Assembly: GCF_000025925.1 (NCBI RefSeq)
Contig: NC_014033.1
Coordinates: forward strand, 3,030,001-3,062,000
Reading direction: 5' to 3'
DNA: 32,000 bases
Origin: Xylanibacter ruminicola 23
Lineage (GTDB): Bacteria > Bacteroidota > Bacteroidia > Bacteroidales > Bacteroidaceae
Shown here: piece after piece, positions 4,163-22,526 of the stretch
Layout of the letters: each line of letters starts with the position of its first letter
How positions within the stretch are numbered: position 1 is the first letter of the stretch
Made by a program: the position numbers and the translations under genes
The notes under the pieces: generated by a model
What the model was told of the DNA's origin: nothing
Databases searched by the model: none
Seen by the model: the letters and a program-made list of their open reading frames with translations, nothing else

Positions 4163-4960
4163 TTATACCTGTTTTGTTACTTTTATTGTCATGGTCTTGG
4201 GATCGAAGGCTATACCCTCCCGTTCTATAAACCTGCCTAATGCCCCTTGTTCTGCCAGCGCTTTTGGCGAACCAATAGCCACTGCTTCGCCTTGAGTCAT
4301 CAGCCAGATGGTATCGGCCATCTGCAGGGCCAGTTCCACATCGTGCGTGGATAAAAAAATTACTTTGTCAGCCTCACGACTAATGCGACACAACAGCTGC
4401 AACACCTCAACCTTGCTGGGATAGTCGAGAAAAGCCGTTGGCTCGTCAAGATAAATCACAGGTGTTTGTTGGGCCAGCGCTTTGGCTATCATTACCTTCT
4501 GGCGTTCGCCATCGCTCAGCGTGTGCACCATGCGCTTCTTCAGCGGCTCTATACCCACCATCGCAATAGCCTCGTCAACCACCTGCAGGTCGTCTTTCGA
4601 ATAGGTGCCCCAGAATCCTGTGTAGGGCGATCGCCCCAACGATACCAGCTCGCGAACAGTCATATTCCTCACATCAGGCTTTTCGGTCAGCACCACACCT
4701 ATCAGGCGGCTCAGCTGTTTATCGCTGTACTCTGAGAGTTCGCGACCTTCTAACAGTATCTCGCCACCTGTTTTTGGTTGGAATGAAGATAGGGTTTTTA
4801 GTAGCGTTGATTTTCCTACACCATTAGCACCCAGCAGACAAGTAAGTTCACCGCTTTTGATGGTACCATCGATGCCCGTAGCCACCGTTTTTATACCGTG
4901 TTTTGTCTGGTAGCCAATGCTTAGATTGCGCAGTTCTATAGTTTCGCCCGTCGTCTTCAT
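4163..4960 (-). CDS. ABC transporter ATP-binding protein (FecE/BtuD-like)
   Basis: Walker A GANGVGKST, ABC signature LSDGERQ, Walker B VIYLDEPT. It lies 15 nt upstream of cobD on the same strand. Confidence 0.85.
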   Translation of the reverse strand: MKTTGETIELRNLSIGYQTKHGIKTVATGIDGTIKSGELTCLLGANGVGKSTLLKTLSSFQPKTGGEILLEGRELSEYSDKQLSRLIGVVLTEKPDVRNMTVRELVSLGRSPYTGFWGTYSKDDLQVVDEAIAMVGIEPLKKRMVHTLSDGERQKVMIAKALAQQTPVIYLDEPTAFLDYPSKVEVLQLLCRISREADKVIFLSTHDVELALQMADTIWLMTQGEAVAIGSPKALAEQGALGRFIEREGIAFDPKTMTIKVTKQV

Positions 4961-5032: not shown

Positions 5033-5608
5033 TTATGCAAGCAGGTGTGTAATCAGTATTTTTATACCTATTACTATCAGAATAATACCGCCTAAAAGTT
5101 CTGGCTTTAGCTTGCGAGCTATCGATTTGCCGAACCTTACGCCCAACCTGTAGCCTACAAAACTGAACATGAAAGATACCAGACCGATGATTAAAAGCGG
5201 GTAAGCTATCTGTGCAAAGGCACGATAGCCTGTACAAGCAAACGATATTCCGATGGCCAGCGCGTCAATACTTGTAGCTACGGCCAGCACCAACTGGGTG
5301 CGCAGGTTCTTAGGGTTAAACTGCTGTTCTTCCTCGTCAGAGAACGATTCGCGAATCATTTTTCCACCTAAAAACGCCAGCAAGCCAAAGGCTATCCAAT
5401 GGTCGATAGCTTCCAATTGCTCGCTAAAGTGGTTGGTAGTCAGCCAGCCTATCAGTGGCATCACGGCCTGGAACAGTCCGAACAGAAAAGCCATACGCAG
5501 AATCATCGCCCACAACCAACGGCGAACGATAACACCGCTCACAATCGAAACCGTGAAGCAATCCATAGCCAAAGCAACGGCTAACATCCATATATCCAGC
5601 GAGTTCAT
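5033..5608 (-). CDS. mntP: Manganese efflux pump MntP
   Basis: From the internal Met the protein (MNSLDIWMLAVALAMDCFTVSI...HWIAFGLLAFLGGKMI...TSIDALAIGISF...GGIILIVIGIKIL) aligns along its whole length with MntP (two DUF204 halves). The upstream 69 codons of the track ORF are low-complexity and run into the GH36 promoter and start. Confidence 0.8.
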   Translation of the reverse strand: MNSLDIWMLAVALAMDCFTVSIVSGVIVRRWLWAMILRMAFLFGLFQAVMPLIGWLTTNHFSEQLEAIDHWIAFGLLAFLGGKMIRESFSDEEEQQFNPKNLRTQLVLAVATSIDALAIGISFACTGYRAFAQIAYPLLIIGLVSFMFSFVGYRLGVRFGKSIARKLKPELLGGIILIVIGIKILITHLLA

Positions 5609-17086: not shown

Positions 17087-18451
17087 ATGATTACTAAGAA
17101 TATATCAAAATATCTCGCCATGTTCTTCATGGTTTGCGGCATGGCTGCTAATACAGCTTGCACATCTGATGAGGATCCGTTCTTCACGGCTGGCGAGGAC
17201 GATTATCCCCGTATCCTGAATACGGATATCCCCGAAGGTAAGGGTGGCGAGCCTGGCGTGCTCATGACCATCGAGCGCACCCAGAACTTCCAGTTCGACG
17301 TAATGGTTACCCCCGTTAAGTACACCACCGTTACCTGGCTTATCGACGATGAGCAGGTAGCCGAAGGTCTTTCTATCGACACACCTGTACTGGCTGGCGA
17401 GCACATCGTAAAGATTGTAGCAGCTACCACTAAGGGGCTTGAAACCTCACGTACCTGCAAGCTCGTTGTTCTGCCTGCCGAGGGCGATCCCTCACTGGCC
17501 AGCGACGGCAAATCACGTTGGCTCACTATCGGTAGCACCAAAACTATCGATTGCACCAATGCTACTAACGTAACCAAGGTGTTCGTGGGCAAGCAGGAGG
17601 CTAGCAACGTATCGTTTGCAAACGGAAAACTTACCTTTACTGTTCCCAGCATGGCCGAGGGCGAGTACACTGTTGTTATCGAGGCCGATGGCGCACGTTA
17701 TGGTTGCGGCGTATTCACAGTCAGCAACACCGAGTATGTTGATCCAGGCGTAAAGGAGACTGTACTCTGGGAGGGTAGCACCGAGATTAACTGGGGCGAT
17801 GCAAACGTTACTGTCTCAGCTGCCGATATGGCTAATGTGCCTGTAGGCGCTACCATCCGTTTGGTTTACGAAATGGCCGATATGCCTGATGGTTATCATG
17901 CCCTGCGTATCACCACACCTTGGTGGGGCGATAATGCCGAGGATCAGATCGTAGCTCAGTTCGACCTCACAGCCGACACACCAAACCCATTCGAGTTCAC
18001 CTACACCGAAGCCAACAAGGCAATCGTAGATGAGCGTGGAGGTATGCTCATCGTAGGTTATGGTTACAAGCTTACAAAAGTGGTTGCTTTAGAAAATGTA
18101 GCTCCTGCCGAGACCACCCTTTGGGAAGGCGGCATCGAGATTAACTGGGGCGATGCAAACGTTACTGTCTCAGCTGCCGATATGGCTAATGTGCCTGTTG
18201 GCGCTACTGTGCATGTTTACTACCAGATGGCCGATATGCCTGATGGCTATCATGCCCTGCGTATCACCACACCTTGGTGGGGCGATAATGCCGAGGATCA
18301 GATTGTAGCTCAGTTCGATCTCACAGCCGACACCGCTAACCCATACGACTTTACCTACACCGAAGCCAACAAGGCAATTGTAGATGAGCGTGGCGGTATG
18401 CTCCTTGTAGGCTACGGTTACAAGCTTACCAAGGTAACATTCTCGAAGTAA
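17087..18451 (+). CDS. SusE/F-position surface lipoprotein with Ig-like domains and two tandem 118-aa putative glycan-binding modules
   Basis: Lipobox NTAC followed by the acidic stretch TSDEDP. It occupies the third position after SusC/SusD. Its C-terminal half is an internal tandem repeat. Confidence 0.7.
   Translation: MITKNISKYLAMFFMVCGMAANTACTSDEDPFFTAGEDDYPRILNTDIPEGKGGEPGVLMTIERTQNFQFDVMVTPVKYTTVTWLIDDEQVAEGLSIDTPVLAGEHIVKIVAATTKGLETSRTCKLVVLPAEGDPSLASDGKSRWLTIGSTKTIDCTNATNVTKVFVGKQEASNVSFANGKLTFTVPSMAEGEYTVVIEADGARYGCGVFTVSNTEYVDPGVKETVLWEGSTEINWGDANVTVSAADMANVPVGATIRLVYEMADMPDGYHALRITTPWWGDNAEDQIVAQFDLTADTPNPFEFTYTEANKAIVDERGGMLIVGYGYKLTKVVALENVAPAETTLWEGGIEINWGDANVTVSAADMANVPVGATVHVYYQMADMPDGYHALRITTPWWGDNAEDQIVAQFDLTADTANPYDFTYTEANKAIVDERGGMLLVGYGYKLTKVTFSK
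17756..18448 (+). repeat. In-frame tandem duplication (2 x 354/339 nt) inside the SusE/F-like gene
   Basis: Unit 1 is 17756-18109 and unit 2 is 18110-18448, a period of 354 nt (118 codons). There are identical runs of 62 nt and 56 nt (for example GAGATTAACTGGGGCGATGCAAACGTTACTGTCTCAGCTGCCGATATGGCTAATGTGCCTGT). Confidence 0.95.
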
Positions 18452-18481
18452 ATAAAACATCTATATTACCATGAAATTTCA

Positions 18482-18521
18482 AGGGCTGGTATTCCTCCAC
18501 ACGGATACCAGCCCTCATTTT
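18482..18521 (+). terminator. Terminator after SusE/F-like gene (end of PUL)
   Basis: An 11-bp stem, AGGGCTGGTAT (18482-18492) / ATACCAGCCCT (18505-18515), followed by CATTTTG. Confidence 0.6.
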
Positions 18522-18569
18522 GTTTAACCATTATATCACAACTTATTTTAAGGTGATAATTGCGAAATC

Positions 18570-18818
18570 TCTCAACCTCTCACTCAAATCTTCTGAAACA
18601 TGCATAAATACTGGGGATAGAGGAGGATGAGAGGTTTGCTAAACCTCTCACTAAAGCTCTCACTATACCTCTCACTTTTATATCAAAGATGACGAATGCT
18701 GAAACTTCTCATAGGGGGAGGTTGAGGGAGAGGTTAGGTGAGAGGTTGGAGCAACCTCTCATGTGGCTGAAATGCTTTGTATATAAAGGTTTCAAAGGTA
18801 TTGAGTGAGAGGTTGAGA
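18570..18818. repeat. Element R1: 249-bp word-built palindromic element (candidate structured RNA, inverton or DNA cruciform)
   Basis: Perfect 18-bp terminal inverted repeat, 18570-18587 / 18801-18818. About eleven copies of TGAGAGGTT/AACCTCTCA. Local hairpins at 18628-18650 and 18739-18761. Co-linear homologue at 21371-21677. Confidence 0.8.
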
Positions 18819-18824
18819 TGTTTT

Positions 18825-18860
18825 TGCAAAAAAATCATGCCACCATTAATGCTGGCATGA
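18825..18860 (-). terminator. Terminator of MACPF gene
   Basis: On the minus strand, an 8-bp stem (TCATGCCA/TGGCATGA, 18835-18842 / 18853-18860) is followed by T7 (complement of 18825-18834). Confidence 0.6.
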
Positions 18861-18949
18861 GTACTTATTAGATATGACTCCAGTACGCCTTAGGAAGTAC
18901 TGCAGTCCTCTTACTAAAGGACTCGAGTACTCCTACGGAAGGATTTTCA

Positions 18950-19999
18950 TTACAACTGATGGCTATGTATATATGCTTTGACAGCTCGCTGTACCTCAGT
19001 ACTTTTTGTTTTGTTGGTTATCAGTTGGTAGATCGGTATTACATCGTCGCCAGTCAGCAGTACGAGCGATAGATTATCGTTATTTGCTTGGTTCCACCAT
19101 TCAGCAATAGCTTTTGATGATTTCTCTTTGCTGAGAGGTAATTGAGCGAATTCAGTTGAAAGCCTTTGCGTGTTGCCACCATGACATTGTACTGATAGTG
19201 CGCCACCTTTTGTAGCTTTCGAATCGATAATTTTCCAATAAACGGGGTTATATACCTCGTTCATACGACGGAACATACTACATAAGAAGCAATCGTCATC
19301 GTTTGTATTTTCTTTCAGGCCAGAACGATAGAGTGATAGGATATTTATTCCCATAAGTGCACATTTGAGTACATGGGTGCCAAATCGTTCTACAATACGT
19401 TCAGCGCTTTCGTTTTCAAGTGCTTGTTTGAAATCATCAGTCAGGATACGGTCAATATATCGTTCAGTCGGTATCAGCAGTTTCTTTTCATATACGGCGT
19501 ATCTGTCCATATACATCATAAACGAGTAGTTATCGCTTCGCTCCTTGCTTTCCTTAAACAAAGGATTGCTTGTAAAAGTACCAGCGAAATATACGTCGCC
19601 TGGTTCGCCCTCGAGTGTAAATCCTTCTGCTCTACGCAAACCATCCAAGAAAGTCCATGAATACCCAATGCCACTTACCAGACTTCCTGTTCCGCTACTG
19701 GCCACAATAGATGTCATCTCGTCTGGTTCTATTTTGTTCAGGTCGATCACATTCTCGCGCAGGCATTCGTTGCTAAGATATGGCCCCGTTATATCGTAAC
19801 CTGAGCCCAGATATTCTTTTGCAGCAAGAGGCATATCGGCCGATAGGTTGGTGATGGTTTCCTCTTCGGGTACAGCAACTTCGCCCTTGTTAGTAGGGTC
19901 GTTATTATCTACGATATCTTCATTATTACTGCTGCAAGAGACGAGAGAGAAGGCAGTAAGCGCAATACATATTGTTCTCCTGAAATTAATTGTAATCAT
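18950..19999 (-). CDS. MACPF (perforin-like) domain lipoprotein, BSAP-like candidate pore-forming toxin
   Basis: Lipobox FSLVSC followed by SSNNEDIVDNND. The MACPF entry motif is YLGSGYDITG. The signature-like stretch FGTHVLKCALMGI compares with [YW]G[TS]H[FY]x6GG. The C-terminal ...VIPIYQLI is typical of bacterial MACPFs. Confidence 0.7.
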   Translation of the reverse strand: MITINFRRTICIALTAFSLVSCSSNNEDIVDNNDPTNKGEVAVPEEETITNLSADMPLAAKEYLGSGYDITGPYLSNECLRENVIDLNKIEPDEMTSIVASSGTGSLVSGIGYSWTFLDGLRRAEGFTLEGEPGDVYFAGTFTSNPLFKESKERSDNYSFMMYMDRYAVYEKKLLIPTERYIDRILTDDFKQALENESAERIVERFGTHVLKCALMGINILSLYRSGLKENTNDDDCFLCSMFRRMNEVYNPVYWKIIDSKATKGGALSVQCHGGNTQRLSTEFAQLPLSKEKSSKAIAEWWNQANNDNLSLVLLTGDDVIPIYQLITNKTKSTEVQRAVKAYIHSHQL

Positions 20000-20022
20000 A
20001 CCTTATATAATTGGTTATAGTG

Positions 20023-20030
20023 CAAAAGTA
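20023..20030 (-). promoter_or_regulatory. -7 box (TACTTTTG) for MACPF gene
   Basis: The reverse complement of 20023-20030 is TACTTTTG, 23 nt upstream of the start codon. Two ATCCCTAT direct repeats and an AGGGA-AA-TCCCT inverted repeat lie just upstream (20061-20095). Confidence 0.45.
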
Positions 20031-20108
20031 CTAATTTCTGTCAATACACAAAAAATAATATCCCTATAATTAATGAGGGAAATCCCTATTATTCTATTAT
20101 CAAGCGTG

Positions 20109-20990
20109 CTATATTCTAAAATACTTTAGCAGTTCTTTATACATATCTTGGGCTGTAAGACAAGTATCTGTAAGGTAGCCGTTAATATGTCCCCATTCTC
20201 GCAGACCTCTATAATAGAATATCTTCAAATCATCTGTAATAATGAATGGAACAATATTATTGGCTAGGCACTCCTTAAACATCAGCAATCGACCAACGCG
20301 ACCATTACCATCTTGGAAAGGATGAATCTGTTCAAGCCGCACATGGAAGTCAAGAATATCTTCGAATGATTTCTTGCCTTTATGATTATATTCATCCAAT
20401 AGGGTTTTCAACTGCTTGTGTACATCCTCTGGTGCACAAGTATCCTGTCCACCAACCTCGTTTGGTAATCGTTTATAATCGCCAACGGCAAACCAATCCT
20501 TACGACTATCAGAAGTTCCTGATTTCAGCAACAGATGCAGATGCTTTACCAGATTTTCTGTCAGTTTATCCTCTGTATGATCGATGATATAATCGATACA
20601 ACGGAAGTGATTAACTGTCTCTACAACGTCATCCACATTTATAGCGCTGTCAGTAACACCAATCGTATTAGTTTCAAAAATATATCGAGTCTGATCGTGG
20701 GTAAGCTTGCTACCTTCTATATGATTAGAGTTATAAGTAAGGTCTATCTGGGTGCGATGATAAATACCACCTTTTAGTTTCGATGCCTTCTGCTCTCTCA
20801 ACGCCTTAAGAAGTGGCGATACCTTTTTATTTTTCTCACCACGCTTGGGCAAAGCAGCATCTGCAGGAATATTCCAAGTCTTTCCTGTTAAGAAAGCCCC
20901 CTCTATCTTCCCTTGGGCACAATAATTTCGGGCCGTACGCTCAGAAATACCATACTTTTCTGCAAACTTACTAACTGATATATACTCCAT
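20109..20990 (-). CDS. Fic-family AMPylase with N-terminal HTH DNA-binding domain and intramolecular inhibitory motif (class II-like)
   Basis: Fic motif HPFQDGNGRVGR matches HxFx(D/E)GNGRxxR. The inhibitory motif SNHIEG matches (S/T)xxxE(G/N). The N-terminus ISVSKFAEKYGISERTARNYCAQGKI is a MerR/excisionase-type HTH. Confidence 0.85.
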   Translation of the reverse strand: MEYISVSKFAEKYGISERTARNYCAQGKIEGAFLTGKTWNIPADAALPKRGEKNKKVSPLLKALREQKASKLKGGIYHRTQIDLTYNSNHIEGSKLTHDQTRYIFETNTIGVTDSAINVDDVVETVNHFRCIDYIIDHTEDKLTENLVKHLHLLLKSGTSDSRKDWFAVGDYKRLPNEVGGQDTCAPEDVHKQLKTLLDEYNHKGKKSFEDILDFHVRLEQIHPFQDGNGRVGRLLMFKECLANNIVPFIITDDLKIFYYRGLREWGHINGYLTDTCLTAQDMYKELLKYFRI

Positions 20991-21001
20991 GTTTCAACGC
21001 T

Positions 21002-21068
21002 ATCGGCAAGTTTTTACGCCAATTCACGCCACAAATATATAACTTTTTGCCGATACCGGCAAGTTTTT
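21002..21068 (-). promoter_or_regulatory. HTH-Fic promoter (-7 TATATTTG) flanked by operator-like repeats
   Basis: The reverse complement of 21032-21039 is TATATTTG. A perfect palindrome TTGCCG-ATAC-CGGCAA lies at 21047-21062. The direct repeat CGGCAAGTTTTT occurs at 21004-21015 and 21057-21068. Confidence 0.5.
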
Positions 21069-21160
21069 GAAACAAAAACCACTAAATACTTCACTTTTTA
21101 ACTCAATGAATCATGGAGTCGGTTCCATGATTTCCAGTAAATTCGACAGAACGGCGTTTT

Positions 21161-21336
21161 TTGTTCCCAAGGTGGGAATGGATTGTTCCCTAACTGGGAA
21201 TAAAATGTTCCCTAGTTGGGAATAAAGTGTTCCAAAGAAGGGAATATCCCCTAAGGAATAGGTCGAACACCTTGTAGGCATAATCTGAATCACTTGTAGA
21301 CATAATCCGAATGACTCATAGAAATAACTCGAATAC
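21161..21336. repeat. Array of eight phased 22-bp tandem units (five palindromic TGTTCCC-N-TGGGAATA type, three CTTGTAGNCATAATCNGAATNA type)
   Basis: Unit starts are 21161, 21183, 21205, 21227, 21249, 21271, 21293 and 21315, an exact 22-bp register. The first four units each contain the inverted repeat TTCC(C)/GGGAA. Confidence 0.85.
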
Positions 21337-21370
21337 AATAACCTATTTTATATATAGTTTATCGAATTTT

Positions 21371-21677
21371 TCTCTCATCTCTCAACAAATCGCTCAAAAC
21401 CCGCATAAACACTAGGGATTCGAGCGATGAGAGATTCTAAAAATCCCTCCCTAATCTCTCACTAATCTCTCACCCGATCCCTCCAGACACACACACCTCA
21501 GCCAGATTTTAATATTTAAAGAAAAAACCGAAAATAATAGCCAAAAAACTTGCAAAACTTCCTGTGAGGGTTTCCTGAGAGATTGTTGAGAGATTAGGGA
21601 GAGATTCCAAAAATCTCTCACCCATCTCAAATCCTTTGTACACGGGCGTTTCGAGAGATTTCTTGAGAGATGAGAGA
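21371..21677. repeat. Element R2: 307-bp paralogue of R1 with all words switched to TGAGAGATT/AATCTCTCA
   Basis: The 29-nt terminal inverted repeat, 21371-21399 / 21649-21677, matches at 25 of 29 positions. Hairpins at 21428-21461 and 21599-21619. The unpaired cores shared with R1 are GCATAAAYACTRGGGAT and AAATSCTTTGTA. Confidence 0.8.
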
Positions 21678-21700
21678 TTTTTTAATATGATATAACAAAA

Positions 21701-21862
21701 GAAAGCCGCAACCCTGAAAAGGTTGCGGCTCTATTTATATAAGAGGTGTATCGCTTATGCGAATGGATTCTCTGTTGGGTAGTAATCGCCCTTGGGGAAG
21801 TTGTAGTCGATCTCGTCAACGGGGATACCCATGTACTTGAGAACCTCCCAGAGATACTTACC
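21701..21862 (-). pseudogene. Orphan duplicate of the terminator plus last ~36 codons of the isomerase-like gene (copy A of a direct repeat)
   Basis: Aligns with 25737-25893 at a constant offset of 4031 nt in the coding part. There is a 67-nt perfect block (21748-21814 = 25779-25845), then 5 mismatches in 48 nt. Similarity stops abruptly at 21862/25893. Confidence 0.85.
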
Positions 21863-21897
21863 CTGATGGCCGAGACAATTTTTCCGCCAATTATTTC

Positions 21898-21925
21898 TTT
21901 GTTTCAGAAAAAATCGTTAACTTTG
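21898..21925 (+). promoter_or_regulatory. Candidate promoter of the kinase module (-7 TAACTTTG)
   Basis: TAACTTTG at 21918-21925 and TTTG at 21898-21901, 46 nt upstream of the ATG at 21972. Confidence 0.45.
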
Positions 21926-21971
21926 CCAACCTAAAGTCAAACCATATAAAGTCACAGGTGGTGATTAGATA

Positions 21972-22526
21972 ATGAAACAAACAGAATTACTTTGCAAAAC
22001 TATTGAGCAAGCGCTTCATCAGGAGATACGCACGCCAAAAGATTTCGACCAGCTGAGAGAACGCATCTTTCTGCGATTACATCAGATGCTTAGTGCCACA
22101 ACCCTTAAACGTGTGTGGGGCTACTTAGACAATGAGGGCGAACCAAGCGTGAGAACACTCGATACCTTAGCCCAGTTCATTGGTTACAAGAACTATCAGG
22201 CGTTTTGCATGCACTCTCCTGCTGATGGCATGGAGCCAAGTAATCTGGCCATGAATCGCCATCTGGATGTAAATGCCGACCTTGCTGTGGGAGAATGCTT
22301 AACACTCTATTGGCTACCTGACAGAGTGTGTCATATCCGCTATGAGGGCGATATGCGTTTTGTGGTTACAGCATCAGAGAACACTCGTCTGAAAGCAAAC
22401 GATACCTTTTGCTGTAGTCTGATTATCGAAGGTGAGCCACTATATCTTAGTCAGTTGCAACAGGGCGATCAGGAACAAACCAATTATGTTTGTGGCAAAC
22501 GGGGAGGCATTAGATATGAGCGATGA
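21972..22526 (+). CDS. Hypothetical 184-aa protein, possible N-terminal HTH-like region; translationally coupled to the kinase
   Basis: ATG start with a promoter-like box upstream. The N-terminal helical segment ...SATTLKRVWGYLDNEGEPSVRTLDTLAQFIGYKNYQAFC resembles HTH modules seen at N-termini of Bacteroidetes signalling proteins (from memory). The stop (22524-22526) overlaps the kinase ATG (22516) by 11 nt. Confidence 0.55.
   Translation: MKQTELLCKTIEQALHQEIRTPKDFDQLRERIFLRLHQMLSATTLKRVWGYLDNEGEPSVRTLDTLAQFIGYKNYQAFCMHSPADGMEPSNLAMNRHLDVNADLAVGECLTLYWLPDRVCHIRYEGDMRFVVTASENTRLKANDTFCCSLIIEGEPLYLSQLQQGDQEQTNYVCGKRGGIRYER

Follow-up and report, generated by a model that had tools for sequence, protein, structure and literature searches.

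A phased array of 22-bp palindromic units in Xylanibacter ruminicola is a copy of a dispersed repeat family left in the remains of a mobile helicase module

In iteron origins (those of plasmids, of primase-helicase elements such as the SaPI/PICI pri-rep region, and ori-lambda), direct repeats of about 20 bp, each with an internal dyad, recur in phase beside a replication gene and AT-rich DNA; their sequence co-varies with the initiator, a replicon has one such site, and the iterons of ori-lambda lie in frame in the linker-coding part of gene O. Tripartite phage operators (lambda OR1-3, P22, 434) consist of 3-4 palindromes of 15-17 bp, set about two turns of the helix from one another ahead of a promoter; a dimeric repressor from the neighbouring gene binds them cooperatively. 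REP/BIME elements (PMC3116915), which are accompanied by RAYT transposases, are short imperfect palindromes present in many copies and enriched between convergent genes. Rickettsia palindromic elements (RPEs; PMC10969869) occur singly in an intracellular alphaproteobacterium, measure about 100-150 bp, lie in frame at permissive sites of unrelated metabolic genes and encode a conserved peptide. The BrickBuilt minisatellite-MITE of Porphyromonas gingivalis (Klein et al. 2015, PMC4596501), a member of the same bacterial order as the hosts of the array described here, is dispersed in tens of copies per genome, with head-to-tail 22-23-nt repeats without spacers, variable copy number and a limited host range; it is strictly intergenic and has a leader and a tail with IS5-type terminal inverted repeats.

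In a 32,000-nucleotide stretch of Xylanibacter ruminicola 23 (contig NC_014033.1, positions 3,030,001 to 3,062,000; hereafter the window, whose first letter is position 1), an earlier note had described eight phased 22-bp units and read them as an iteron-like array upstream of a gene for a Fic protein with a helix-turn-helix (HTH) domain. The eight-unit array is real: in the window sequence all eight 22-mers sit at starts 21161 to 21315, in steps of 22. We find that it is one copy of a dispersed palindromic family, left with the non-coding parts of a decayed mobile helicase module. (Features given below without a strand have none assigned.) The first four units, here the A array (21161-21248), are inverted repeats of the TTCCC-N5-GGGAA type, more fully (G)TTCCC-N5-GGGAA(T), with unit 4 degenerate (TTCCA...GGGAA); Tandem Repeats Finder (TRF) places them at 21161-21246 (period 22, 3.9 copies, 79% matches, score 88). 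With up to one mismatch allowed, TTCCCNNNNNGGGAA has six matches in the 32 kb of the window against 0.91 expected, and four of the six are phased units, at 21164, 21186, 21208 and 21230. Units 6-8 switch to a different 22-mer with the phase unbroken and form the B array, three units of the CTTGTAGACATAATCCGAATCA type (21271-21336; by TRF 21271-21334, period 22, 2.9 copies, 80% matches, score 72). Between the two lies unit 5 (CCCTAAGGAATAGGTCGAACAC, 21249-21270), which keeps the 22-bp register; it is indeed odd, but it is not degenerate in the sense of random filler, since it is conserved in the composite arrays of two related loci, with one mismatch in L098, where the A array is also near-identical, and recognisably in L108. 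The distance from the last A core to the first B unit, 26 nt, is kept in both composites, so the phase is kept as well. The B array is a lineage-specific minisatellite between the A array and the repeat arm that follows it (arm 1, below), with three units in the window, two each in L098 and L108, and none in L146, L148 and L261; the B 22-mers, and those of a third array (C, below), were not found beyond homologous composites. A common origin of the A, B and C units was considered and dropped, as the best A/B register (13/22 identities, shifted by 1 nt) falls short of significance once shifts are allowed for. Same-species contigs retrieved through Fic added nothing, since all of them have an identical array. 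Two hairpins that the note had placed beside the array, one of 9 bp (21109-21132) and one of 7 bp (21063-21079), are also present.

That the array is an iteron-type origin, or an operator for the HTH of the neighbouring Fic protein, now seems to us scarcely credible. Phased 22-bp direct repeats with internal dyads do look like plasmid iterons, and the Fic protein matches HTH_17, if below the Pfam cut-off (E = 3.7e-4); however, Fic homologues of 85-94% identity in three unrelated contexts (L011, L015, L020) are without the array, and absence from homologous cassettes is what the note had itself named as telling against it. The upstream stretch that these homologues have in common is only about 85 bp long and holds a TTGCCG-N4-CGGCAA palindrome. 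In the window this conserved, operator-like palindrome (TTGCCGATACCGGCAA, 21047-21062) lies in the Fic promoter region (20998-21068, minus strand) with a Bacteroidetes-type -7 box (TATATTTG, the complement of 21032-21039) and a half-site (CTATCGGCAAGT, 21000-21011); the region is the boundary of the Fic unit and is outside the array. A 164-aa gene stands between Fic and the array in L146, and in L148 Fic is 3 kb off, across an operon. As to iterons of the plasmid type, the tandem repeats in helical phase are there (period 22, 3.9 and 2.9 copies), but there is no adjacent initiator gene, the only intact genes nearby being those for Fic and a MACPF protein; the A unit does not co-vary with a replication protein; and in place of one site per replicon there are at least 120 loci, with at least 5-8 per MAG and 25 inside ORFs. 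A blastn search of 21140-21700 against plasmid and phage collections gave no match. By these comparisons the Fic and iteron reading appears already contradicted; what is upheld is that the array is a non-random set of palindromic sites in phase, such as are bound cooperatively by proteins.

Beyond the B array lies a large palindromic module of 11-12-bp units (21358-21677) that is absent from the earlier note. Arm 1 (21358-21490, plus strand), made of tandem 11-bp AATCTCTCA-type repeats and 86% identical to L146 2892-3077, is the iteron-like left arm of a helicase module. It is followed by an AT-rich stretch (21491-21558, plus strand) ending in the -33 box TTGCAAAAC (21550-21558) of a lost helicase promoter; in L098, L108 and L146 TTGCAAAAC is followed by ...TGTATCTTTGCA and a VapE-like gene. 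In the window what follows (21559-21578, plus strand) is the last six codons and the stop of the deleted VapE-like helicase gene, as comparison with L146 shows and L098 likewise; window 21559-21683 is 93.6% identical to L146 4348-4472, where the gene ends at 4367. Arm 2 (21576-21683, plus strand) carries the 11-bp repeats of arm 1 inverted (TGAGAGATT). The helicase gene is lost from its -33 box to its last six codons, with the deletion junction at 21558/21559, a DUF6078 gene is missing too, and 21161-21683 is what remains of a wrecked helicase module, namely the A array, the B array and both arms. The composite homology runs through 21164-21558, which is 75-86% identical to L108 and L098; there the arms bracket a 404-aa gene with VapE-like_dom, DUF5906 and DUF3874, and DUF6078 comes next. 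At the very same locus the sister strains L146 and L151 have the module intact (four A units, arm 1, VapE, arm 2, DUF6078), and sister strains carry there either an intact module or nothing. The note's remark that no Rep gene is nearby is literally true, yet the array abuts the remnant of a VapE-type helicase gene, and the idea that no replication gene is involved does not survive the intact modules of L146 and L151.

Short-form strains lack the whole of 18942-21702, that is MACPF, Fic, the A array, the B array and both arms: in L145 and L147, sequence aligning with window 18300-18941 is followed by sequence aligning with 21703-22100. We do not take this short form for a pristine empty site, as both strains retain half of a Fic operator (CTTGCCGATAT) at the junction. 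Fic and MACPF are mere neighbours in a strain-variable hot spot, and the A-array family marks such hot spots, where MACPF toxin-like and Fic genes come and go.

The A array's regular home is a small two-gene mobile module that encodes a VapE/VirE-type helicase and a 146-aa Cys-rich DUF6078 protein; in long forms of the helicase a BT4734-type primase domain is present as well. VirE domains are predicted to act as helicases when mobile elements replicate, and BT4734 stands for a family of primases (PMC5862659). Relatives at 27-36% identity occur in Bacteroides plasmid records and small faecal virome contigs. When 509 ORFs around the arrays were clustered and host genes set aside, the only recurrent neighbours of 118 arrays were the VapE-like family (16 loci, median distance 346 bp) and DUF6078 (11 loci); a RAYT (IS200/IS605-type Y1) transposase was not among the recurrent families. 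In modules the array is always upstream of the helicase promoter, outside arm 1 in one gene order and between DUF6078 and the helicase gene in the other. Metagenome loci fetched by the helicase alone have it in 29 of 63 cases, in every one of them 331-590 bp ahead of the start of the gene, and roughly half are without it; among relatives of at least 85% identity it is present in 6/6, and in independent DUF6078 look-ups in 3/3. Array and DUF6078 co-occur strongly (counts 15/3/6/24, odds ratio 20, Fisher p = 2e-5, the shared ancestry of loci being ignored), and by a rough estimate that assumes about 20 arrays per 3.5-Mb genome, arrays are more than 30-fold enriched beside helicase genes. Inverted arms of 11-12-bp repeats flank the module, and the arm motif differs from one helicase subfamily to another (ATCTCTC, CCCTCCC, AGACCTAAC and ACTCACC, among many others); the arms are therefore the iteron-like part. 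The A unit, in contrast to iterons, is dispersed and stays unchanged across helicase subfamilies of 58-99% identity. The note's link to a replication origin holds insofar as the array is among the non-coding parts of a replication-type mobile module, but the repeats that co-vary with the replication protein are those of the neighbouring arms. Independent internal deletions (L101, L141/L048, L125) have kept the arms and the A array. At one end of the module stands the A array, at the other a terminator or arm 2; inverted sites at both ends, as in transposons of the Tn7/Mu type, were not found, the C array being different in sequence.

We lean, with slightly better than even confidence, towards the following account: the array is an A-family copy in a wrecked helicase module, its palindromes are sites for protein dimers, DUF6078 is the best candidate for the binder and the arms are the helicase's iterons. 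Each palindrome would bind one dimer, and the 22-bp spacing, about two helical turns, would place 3-4 dimers on one face of the DNA, so that binding would be cooperative. DUF6078 would then control helicase expression and/or help an arm-type origin, with the arms serving the helicase as iterons. Its structural model is confident (pLDDT 84.6) and shows a cluster of invariant Cys and His residues as well as a helical C-terminal region; a fold search gave no significant neighbour (best E-value 0.4), with weak repeated matches to XRE/Cro-type repressors and to MqsA. The array resembles a multipartite operator in having several palindromes of 15-17 bp, at a spacing of about two helical turns, ahead of a promoter; it differs from the phage operators in that it lies 330-590 bp upstream of the helicase start in one gene order, which is far for a classical operator, in that copies are found far from promoters and in genes, and in that its repressor is only a candidate. 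The array in the window is probably inert, unless the protein comes from intact modules at other sites of the genome. With its constant 22-bp sites and subfamily-specific 11-12-bp arms, the VapE/DUF6078 module is a compact candidate origin with a regulator for vectors, in the Prevotella/Xylanibacter group, which has few replicons and genetic tools.

Quite improbable in our judgement is a host chromosomal protein (a nucleoid-associated or recombination factor) whose binding array is exploited by mobile elements, the edges being recombination or insertion hot spots. The constancy of the A unit next to variable arm repeats would fit such a protein, as would arrays in some viral contigs with neither a helicase nor a DUF6078 gene and the breaks of homology at array edges (near 21156 between the window and L098, at the C edge 18941/18942, and between L103 and L089). 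However, no host protein is known as a candidate, copies inside ORFs decay, and in L266 and L272 the array separates DUF6078 from the helicase gene, while in L266 the arms enclose it too; on this ground the idea that it is no more than an integration target was rejected.

Rumen Prevotella and Xylanibacter are dominant fibre degraders, and their genomes carry in this family a modular phased-repeat system that annotation ignores. The A unit consists of a palindrome of 15-17 bp (R-TTCCCA-NNN-TGGGAA-Y) and a T-rich linker of 5 bp, and units follow one another head to tail every 22 bp, usually in 3-4 copies. A genome scan found A arrays at 120 loci or more in about 75 rumen Prevotella/Xylanibacter genomes, nearly all of the hosts being rumen Prevotellaceae; several MAGs have at least 5-8 each, and 27 viral contigs carry them. 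A logo of 360 units has sharp edges with no leader or tail, the consensus of 73 three-unit arrays has no conservation past about 5 nt on either side, the 22-mers flanking arrays are random in 209/246, and isolated units are rare (10/299). No target-site duplication is evident in the flank consensus, and no clean filled/empty pair of a single recent insertion was found. Among the 92 arrays whose setting could be classified, 24 lie between convergent, 29 between tandem and 14 between divergent genes, and 25 inside ORFs. Unlike BrickBuilt, then, the A array has no leader, tail or terminal inverted repeats, as a MITE would; its unit is palindromic, about a quarter of its copies lie in frame within genes, and it is tied to the helicase/DUF6078 module. 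It differs from REP/BIME elements in having direct tandem units in strict 22-bp register in place of inverted pairs and in not being solely extragenic; it shares the palindrome with them, and its copies as counted, a lower bound, are in the tens and not the hundreds. Knowing TTCCCA-N3-TGGGAA triplets as a dispersed family guards against calling each copy a local regulator or origin.

The copies inside genes include in-frame A inserts of 66 bp (three 22-bp units, 22 codons) in the linkers of real enzymes, among them GH106, GH92, ABC-F, Acyl_transf_3, CbiA/GATase_3 and a THUMP-like methyltransferase. Most lie between Pfam domains, the Acyl_transf_3 copy within the domain span, and the family accounts for the 22-residue FPxWE / IPxxG / SxxGN inserts in otherwise ordinary enzymes. 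Some ABC-F orthologues have unrelated linkers, and the ABC-F insert decays over time; solo copies are therefore not under visible selection. As with RPEs, a palindromic repeat lies in frame at permissive sites of unrelated functional genes; homology to RPE families in sequence or size was not found, nor any Rfam or other match, and the A insert differs in consisting of three 22-bp units, in belonging to a different phylum and in having most of its copies in intergenic DNA or mobile modules. The solo in-frame copies would be a second, independent case of tiny palindromic DNA entering coding sequence. They suggest that the array also spreads alone, and the roughly one in four arrays inside unrelated ORFs is something that a module-specific operator does not explain.

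We think it rather unlikely, though of the alternatives it deserves most weight, that the family is a purely selfish small repeat (like REP, RPE and other small dispersed repeats), its 3 x 22-bp array being a tiny mobile or expanding element without a function of its own, with its copies in helicase modules being tolerated insertions or hitch-hikers. Its dispersal over all kinds of spacer and ORF, its in-frame copies in the interdomain linkers of several enzymes and the decay of the ABC-F insert all speak for this, as do copy-number changes by whole units (6 versus 4 in L103 and L089; 3 versus 2 for B units) and the greater likeness of units within an array than of arrays at orthologous sites between species (L045 versus L083). 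Against it stand the fixed place upstream of the helicase promoter in two gene orders and across subfamilies of 58-99% identity, the enrichment near helicase genes, the array's retention in independent deletion derivatives, and the failure to find a transposase, a RAYT-type gene, terminal inverted repeats or target duplications at arrays. Unlikely, and a shade less probable, is the reading that the A array is the recognition site of an undescribed, integrase-less module of VapE/VirE helicase (with or without BT4734 primase) and DUF6078, which seeds the solo 66-bp copies. If this were true, solo copies would be seeded by the module's machinery or replication intermediates in the chromosome and in phage-like elements, in-frame insertions would add a 22-residue linker peptide to enzymes, gene-less relics (A array plus arms) would be non-autonomous elements served in trans, and the family would be very small mobile DNA spread by a primase-helicase module without a transposase.

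A very improbable explanation is that the units act as RNA or single-stranded DNA, a row of hairpins serving as terminator, insulator or mRNA stabiliser, or as a signal for ssDNA packaging or rolling-circle replication in phage-like elements. Each unit could form a 6-7-bp stem, followed in one orientation by a U-rich linker, and in the viral loci L164, L175 and L163 the array tops a long hairpin whose outer stem co-varies. However, folding is only weakly better than for shuffled sequence on either strand (z = -2.1 and -2.3), arrays at gene 3' ends have no orientation bias (23 versus 22), arrays are tolerated inside ORFs, and in degenerate units 73 single changes break a pair and 20 keep it, while six double changes keep it and four do not. 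A structured RNA or terminator was dropped on account of the weak folding, the lack of compensatory changes and the lack of orientation bias at gene ends. An Rfam search of 18000-22500 gave sub-threshold, spurious plant microRNA matches to the palindromic arms and none on the array.

For the viral arrays an att-site at a tRNA was also considered and dropped, there being no tRNA beside them, and PHROGs, Pfam, NCBIfam and PDB sequence searches with the genes around them gave nothing useful except a tyrosine integrase in L159.

Two further features of the window are absent from the earlier note. The C array (18876-18943) is a third, unrelated 22-bp array of 3.1 copies, which sits where the variable segment begins on the left and which every strain has. 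To its left is a second palindromic module (18565-18823), with AACCTCTCA-type 12-bp repeats in nested arms, which looks like another decayed arm pair facing the opposite way; its central 111 bp are deleted in L001 and L007.

All eight of the 22-mers that the earlier note had described upstream of the Fic gene lie in the window where it placed them, as do both hairpins to their left. Tandem Repeats Finder resolves them into two period-22 arrays, at 21161-21246 (3.9 copies, 79% matches) and 21271-21334 (2.9 copies, 80% matches), and TTCCCNNNNNGGGAA occurs six times in the whole window at no more than one mismatch against 0.91 expected, four of the six matches being spaced exactly 22 bp apart. 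The phased array is therefore confirmed; we call its four palindromic units (21161-21248) the A array, and the units at 21271-21336, which follow an odd unit (21249-21270), the B array. The perfect 9-bp hairpin (AATCATGGA/TCCATGATT, 21109-21132) has the Fic promoter on one side and the A array on the other, and lies outside both the conserved Fic unit and the module composite described below.

The HTH of the adjacent Fic protein (293 aa; a Fic domain and a weak HTH_17 match) had been the proposed binder of this array. Fic homologues are very common, and we compared three that are 85-94% identical, each in an unrelated context. The 22-bp array is absent from all three contexts, so the proposed tie to Fic fails by the test set out with it. 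Sequence shared with the window begins only about 85 bp upstream of the Fic ATG in the three contexts, and the Fic promoter region (20998-21068, minus strand) is conserved with the gene. It includes the palindrome TTGCCG-N4-CGGCAA (21047-21062, minus strand) over the -33 region; a Bacteroidetes-type -7 box (TATATTTG, minus strand) and an extra half-site in the Fic leader (ACTTGCCGATAG, minus strand) also belong to the conserved upstream stretch. This promoter region is a better candidate target for the Fic HTH, and is likely to be its autoregulatory operator. A two-copy 22-bp repeat (CTATGAGATAGCAGTATTCTTA) lies directly downstream of the Fic homologue of another species (L020 5967-6008), possibly by chance.

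Window 21164-21558 is 75-86% identical to two homologous composites, L108 and L098. In L098 the halves of the window's right-hand palindromic module (21358-21677; 11-12-bp repeats; missed in the earlier note) stand 1.3 kb apart and flank a 404-aa helicase gene (VapE-like_dom, DUF5906 and DUF3874), with a 146-aa DUF6078 gene next; the elements run from the A array through the odd unit, the B units, arm 1 and the promoter (TTGCAAAAC...TATCTTTG) to the helicase gene, arm 2 and DUF6078. The window has lost the helicase gene between its -33 box (21550-21558) and its last six codons (21559-21578), and the two arms are thus joined into one big palindrome. Homology with L098 breaks off at ~21685 on one side and, on the other, precisely where the A array has its outer edge (~21156). 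Independent internal deletions that spare the arms and the A array are found at L101, L141/L048 and L125. Judged by these alignments the window copy is a relic.

Scanning a single genome of each species for a phased pair of units (TTCCC-N5-GGGAA-N7-TTCCC-N5-GGGAA) found A-type arrays at at least 120 loci in about 75 assemblies, as counted from record titles. Among the matches listed, almost all sources are rumen Prevotella, Xylanibacter or Prevotellaceae, single MAGs hold up to at least 7-8 loci, arrays have two to six units (three in 73 of 118), and 360 units give the logo tTt-R-TTCCCA-nnn-TGGGAA-Y-r-w-TTT; the array edges are sharp, and neither a leader or tail nor a terminal inverted repeat is conserved around them. 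Solitary units are rare (10/299). At an orthologous site in two species (L045 and L083) units are more alike within arrays than between them, and copy number shifts by whole units, being 6 and 4 in L103 and L089, which share a 2.3-kb alignment at 94.8% identity. Short tandem repeats are unusually abundant in these Prevotella loci (L024-L143, 900 kb in total) and favour certain periods, namely 22 (156 rows), 11 (81), 7 (69), 12 (41) and 14 (32); the repeats include a 21-bp GCAATAAGGGACCCTTATTCT family, and other 22-bp arrays of unrelated sequence adjoin A arrays in L049, L032, L051 and L069.

The only recurrent neighbours of 118 arrays, among the matches listed, are the helicase gene (16 loci, median distance 346 bp) and the DUF6078 gene (11 loci); no transposase-like gene was found among the neighbours of listed arrays. 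In the reverse direction, 80 metagenome loci were fetched by helicase alignment alone; 63 of them extend far enough upstream, and 29 of these carry an A array, always 331-590 bp upstream of the gene start; for helicase relatives of at least 85% identity the figure is 6/6. Array presence goes with a downstream DUF6078 gene (15/3/6/24; odds ratio 20, p = 2e-5, from counts that ignore shared ancestry), and independent DUF6078 look-ups gave an array in 3/3. Two of these (L266 and L272) have the order DUF6078, A array, promoter, helicase, and in L266 the arms lie outside both module genes with the A array inside them. Since the array sits between the module genes, and within the arms in L266, it is not merely an insertion target.

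Around short helicase genes the dominant upstream 7-mers recur downstream as inverted copies, and they vary by helicase subfamily: ATCTCTC in L098, L146 and L108, CCCTCCC in L061, AGACCTAAC in L089, L103, L046 and L088, ACTCACC in L051, and many others in the metagenome helicase set. VirE-type ATPases have been predicted to serve as helicases in the replication of mobile elements, and BT4734 denotes a primase family (PMC5862659); relatives (27-36% identity) occur on Bacteroides plasmid records and on small virome contigs from faeces. Because the arm motif tracks the helicase subfamily, the A unit is constant, and VirE-type ATPases have this predicted replication role, the arms are candidate origin iterons, and the whole module parallels the iteron origins of primase-helicase elements. 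The A array itself, which the earlier note had read as iteron-like, does not qualify by their defining features as an iteron origin, a MITE or a REP/RAYT system. By its anatomy it is a putative multipartite operator, and it may be a constant accessory site. Each 15-17-bp palindrome would bind one protein dimer; with sites 22 bp apart, three to four dimers would line up along the same side of the helix, upstream of the helicase promoter, in a phased row resembling multipartite operators or origin accessory sites. The candidate binder is DUF6078: it accompanies the array in both gene orders, its Cys/His cluster is invariant, and it gives a confident model (pLDDT 84.6) with a helical C-terminal part. 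The fold search with it returned no significant match (best E-value 0.4); its weak matches are repeatedly XRE/Cro-type repressors and MqsA, a hint at most.

The same kind of array is present in 27 IMG/VR loci, where the only neighbour annotation obtained is a tyrosine integrase (L159) and neither helicase nor DUF6078 gene is present. In L179 and L159 it forms an in-frame part of a gene for a small membrane protein, and in three phage-like contigs (L164 3180-3340, L175 4600-4760 and L163 9570-9720) it lies about 45 nt upstream of a homologous gene (MQQLTLQFEGYA...) and tops a long hairpin, the outer stem of which shows co-variation from contig to contig. These findings keep two rivals to an operator bound by DUF6078. 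Arrays on contigs without either module gene could be bound by a host factor, which we consider improbable, and the hairpins could mean that the array acts as an RNA- or single-strand-level signal, which we consider more improbable still.

Among the matches listed, 92 classifiable arrays fall in ORFs (25) or in convergent (24), tandem (29) or divergent (14) spacers. An RNA-level role is unlikely, as arrays at gene 3' ends show no orientation bias (23 vs 22 among these matches). Copies within ORFs are genuine in-frame insertions, three units being 66 nt or 22 codons and the three reading frames encoding FPxWE, IPxxG and SxxGN; in this they parallel the Rickettsia palindromic elements (PMC10969869). 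Within the same bacterial order, the nearest published relative is BrickBuilt, a 23-nt minisatellite-MITE of P. gingivalis (PMC4596501), which differs from the A array in its leaders, tails, IS5-type ends and strictly intergenic placement. Most of the inserts sit in stretches that separate Pfam domains (GH106 rhamnosidase, GH92, ABC-F ATPase, CbiA/GATase_3, THUMP-like methyltransferase); that in an Acyl_transf_3 protein is inside the domain span. Among 120 ABC-F orthologues, the linker at the insert position is hypervariable (40-71 residues in the 88 with both anchor motifs found), some linkers having an intact peptide, some a decayed one and others unrelated low-complexity sequence; by this comparison the ABC-F copy is an old insertion drifting without visible constraint. 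Small nested elements occur inside in-ORF A arrays of an Acyl_transf_3 gene, both still in frame: a ~30-nt insert splits one unit (TGGG|...|AAC) at L035 ~5393-5500, and a perfect palindrome with ~30-bp arms replaces the third unit at L059 ~2700-2802.

The locus differs among strains of the species group (window 18942-21702; L144-L153), forming a hot spot upstream of a 184-aa/Ser-Thr-kinase operon. Its contents are MACPF and Fic genes; Fic, an intact VapE/DUF6078 module and an OMP gene; a CsgG-like operon, Fic and RNase T; or nothing. L146 and L151 have Fic, a 164-aa gene, four A units, arm 1, intact helicase, arm 2, DUF6078 and the OMP gene; L148 is arranged differently; and L145 and L147 (X. 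ruminicola D31d) wholly lack 18942-21702, retaining the left module, array C and half a Fic operator (CTTGCCGATAT). A 35-aa DUF6078 fragment just upstream of another Fic homologue (L015 3104-3211, L019 631-738) indicates that Fic genes and VapE/DUF6078 modules recur at the same variable spots. The MACPF gene (18950-19999, minus strand) directly adjoins a SusC/SusD/TIG-lipoprotein cluster, is truncated in L004 (282 aa), and is present in L153 without an intact Fic gene. We take it to resemble the Bacteroidales secreted antimicrobial (BSAP-type) toxin genes that adjoin their target loci.

The low-G+C MACPF-Fic pair is bracketed by two large palindromic modules of 11-12-bp CTCTCA/TGAGAG repeats and by array C, of which the left module (18565-18823; AACCTCTCA-type 12-bp repeats, nested arms) and array C (18876-18943; unit GACTCCAGTACTCCTACGGAAG, 3.1 copies, period 22, unrelated sequence) had also been missed. 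The left module's loop varies among strains, and in L001 and L007 a precise deletion between AACCTCTCA direct repeats has removed the module's central 111 bp. Array C is flanked by the stop codon of MACPF and by a terminator-like hairpin on the minus strand (18838-18861 plus a T run), is kept in strains without MACPF/Fic, and marks by its edge exactly where the strain-variable segment begins. A short conserved minus-strand frame at 21755-21832 (...MGIPVDEIDYNFPKGDYYPTENPFA*), which is a small gene or else what is left of the C-terminal end of a gene, shows synonymous or conservative changes between strains and is followed by a good minus-strand terminator hairpin at 21698-21736.
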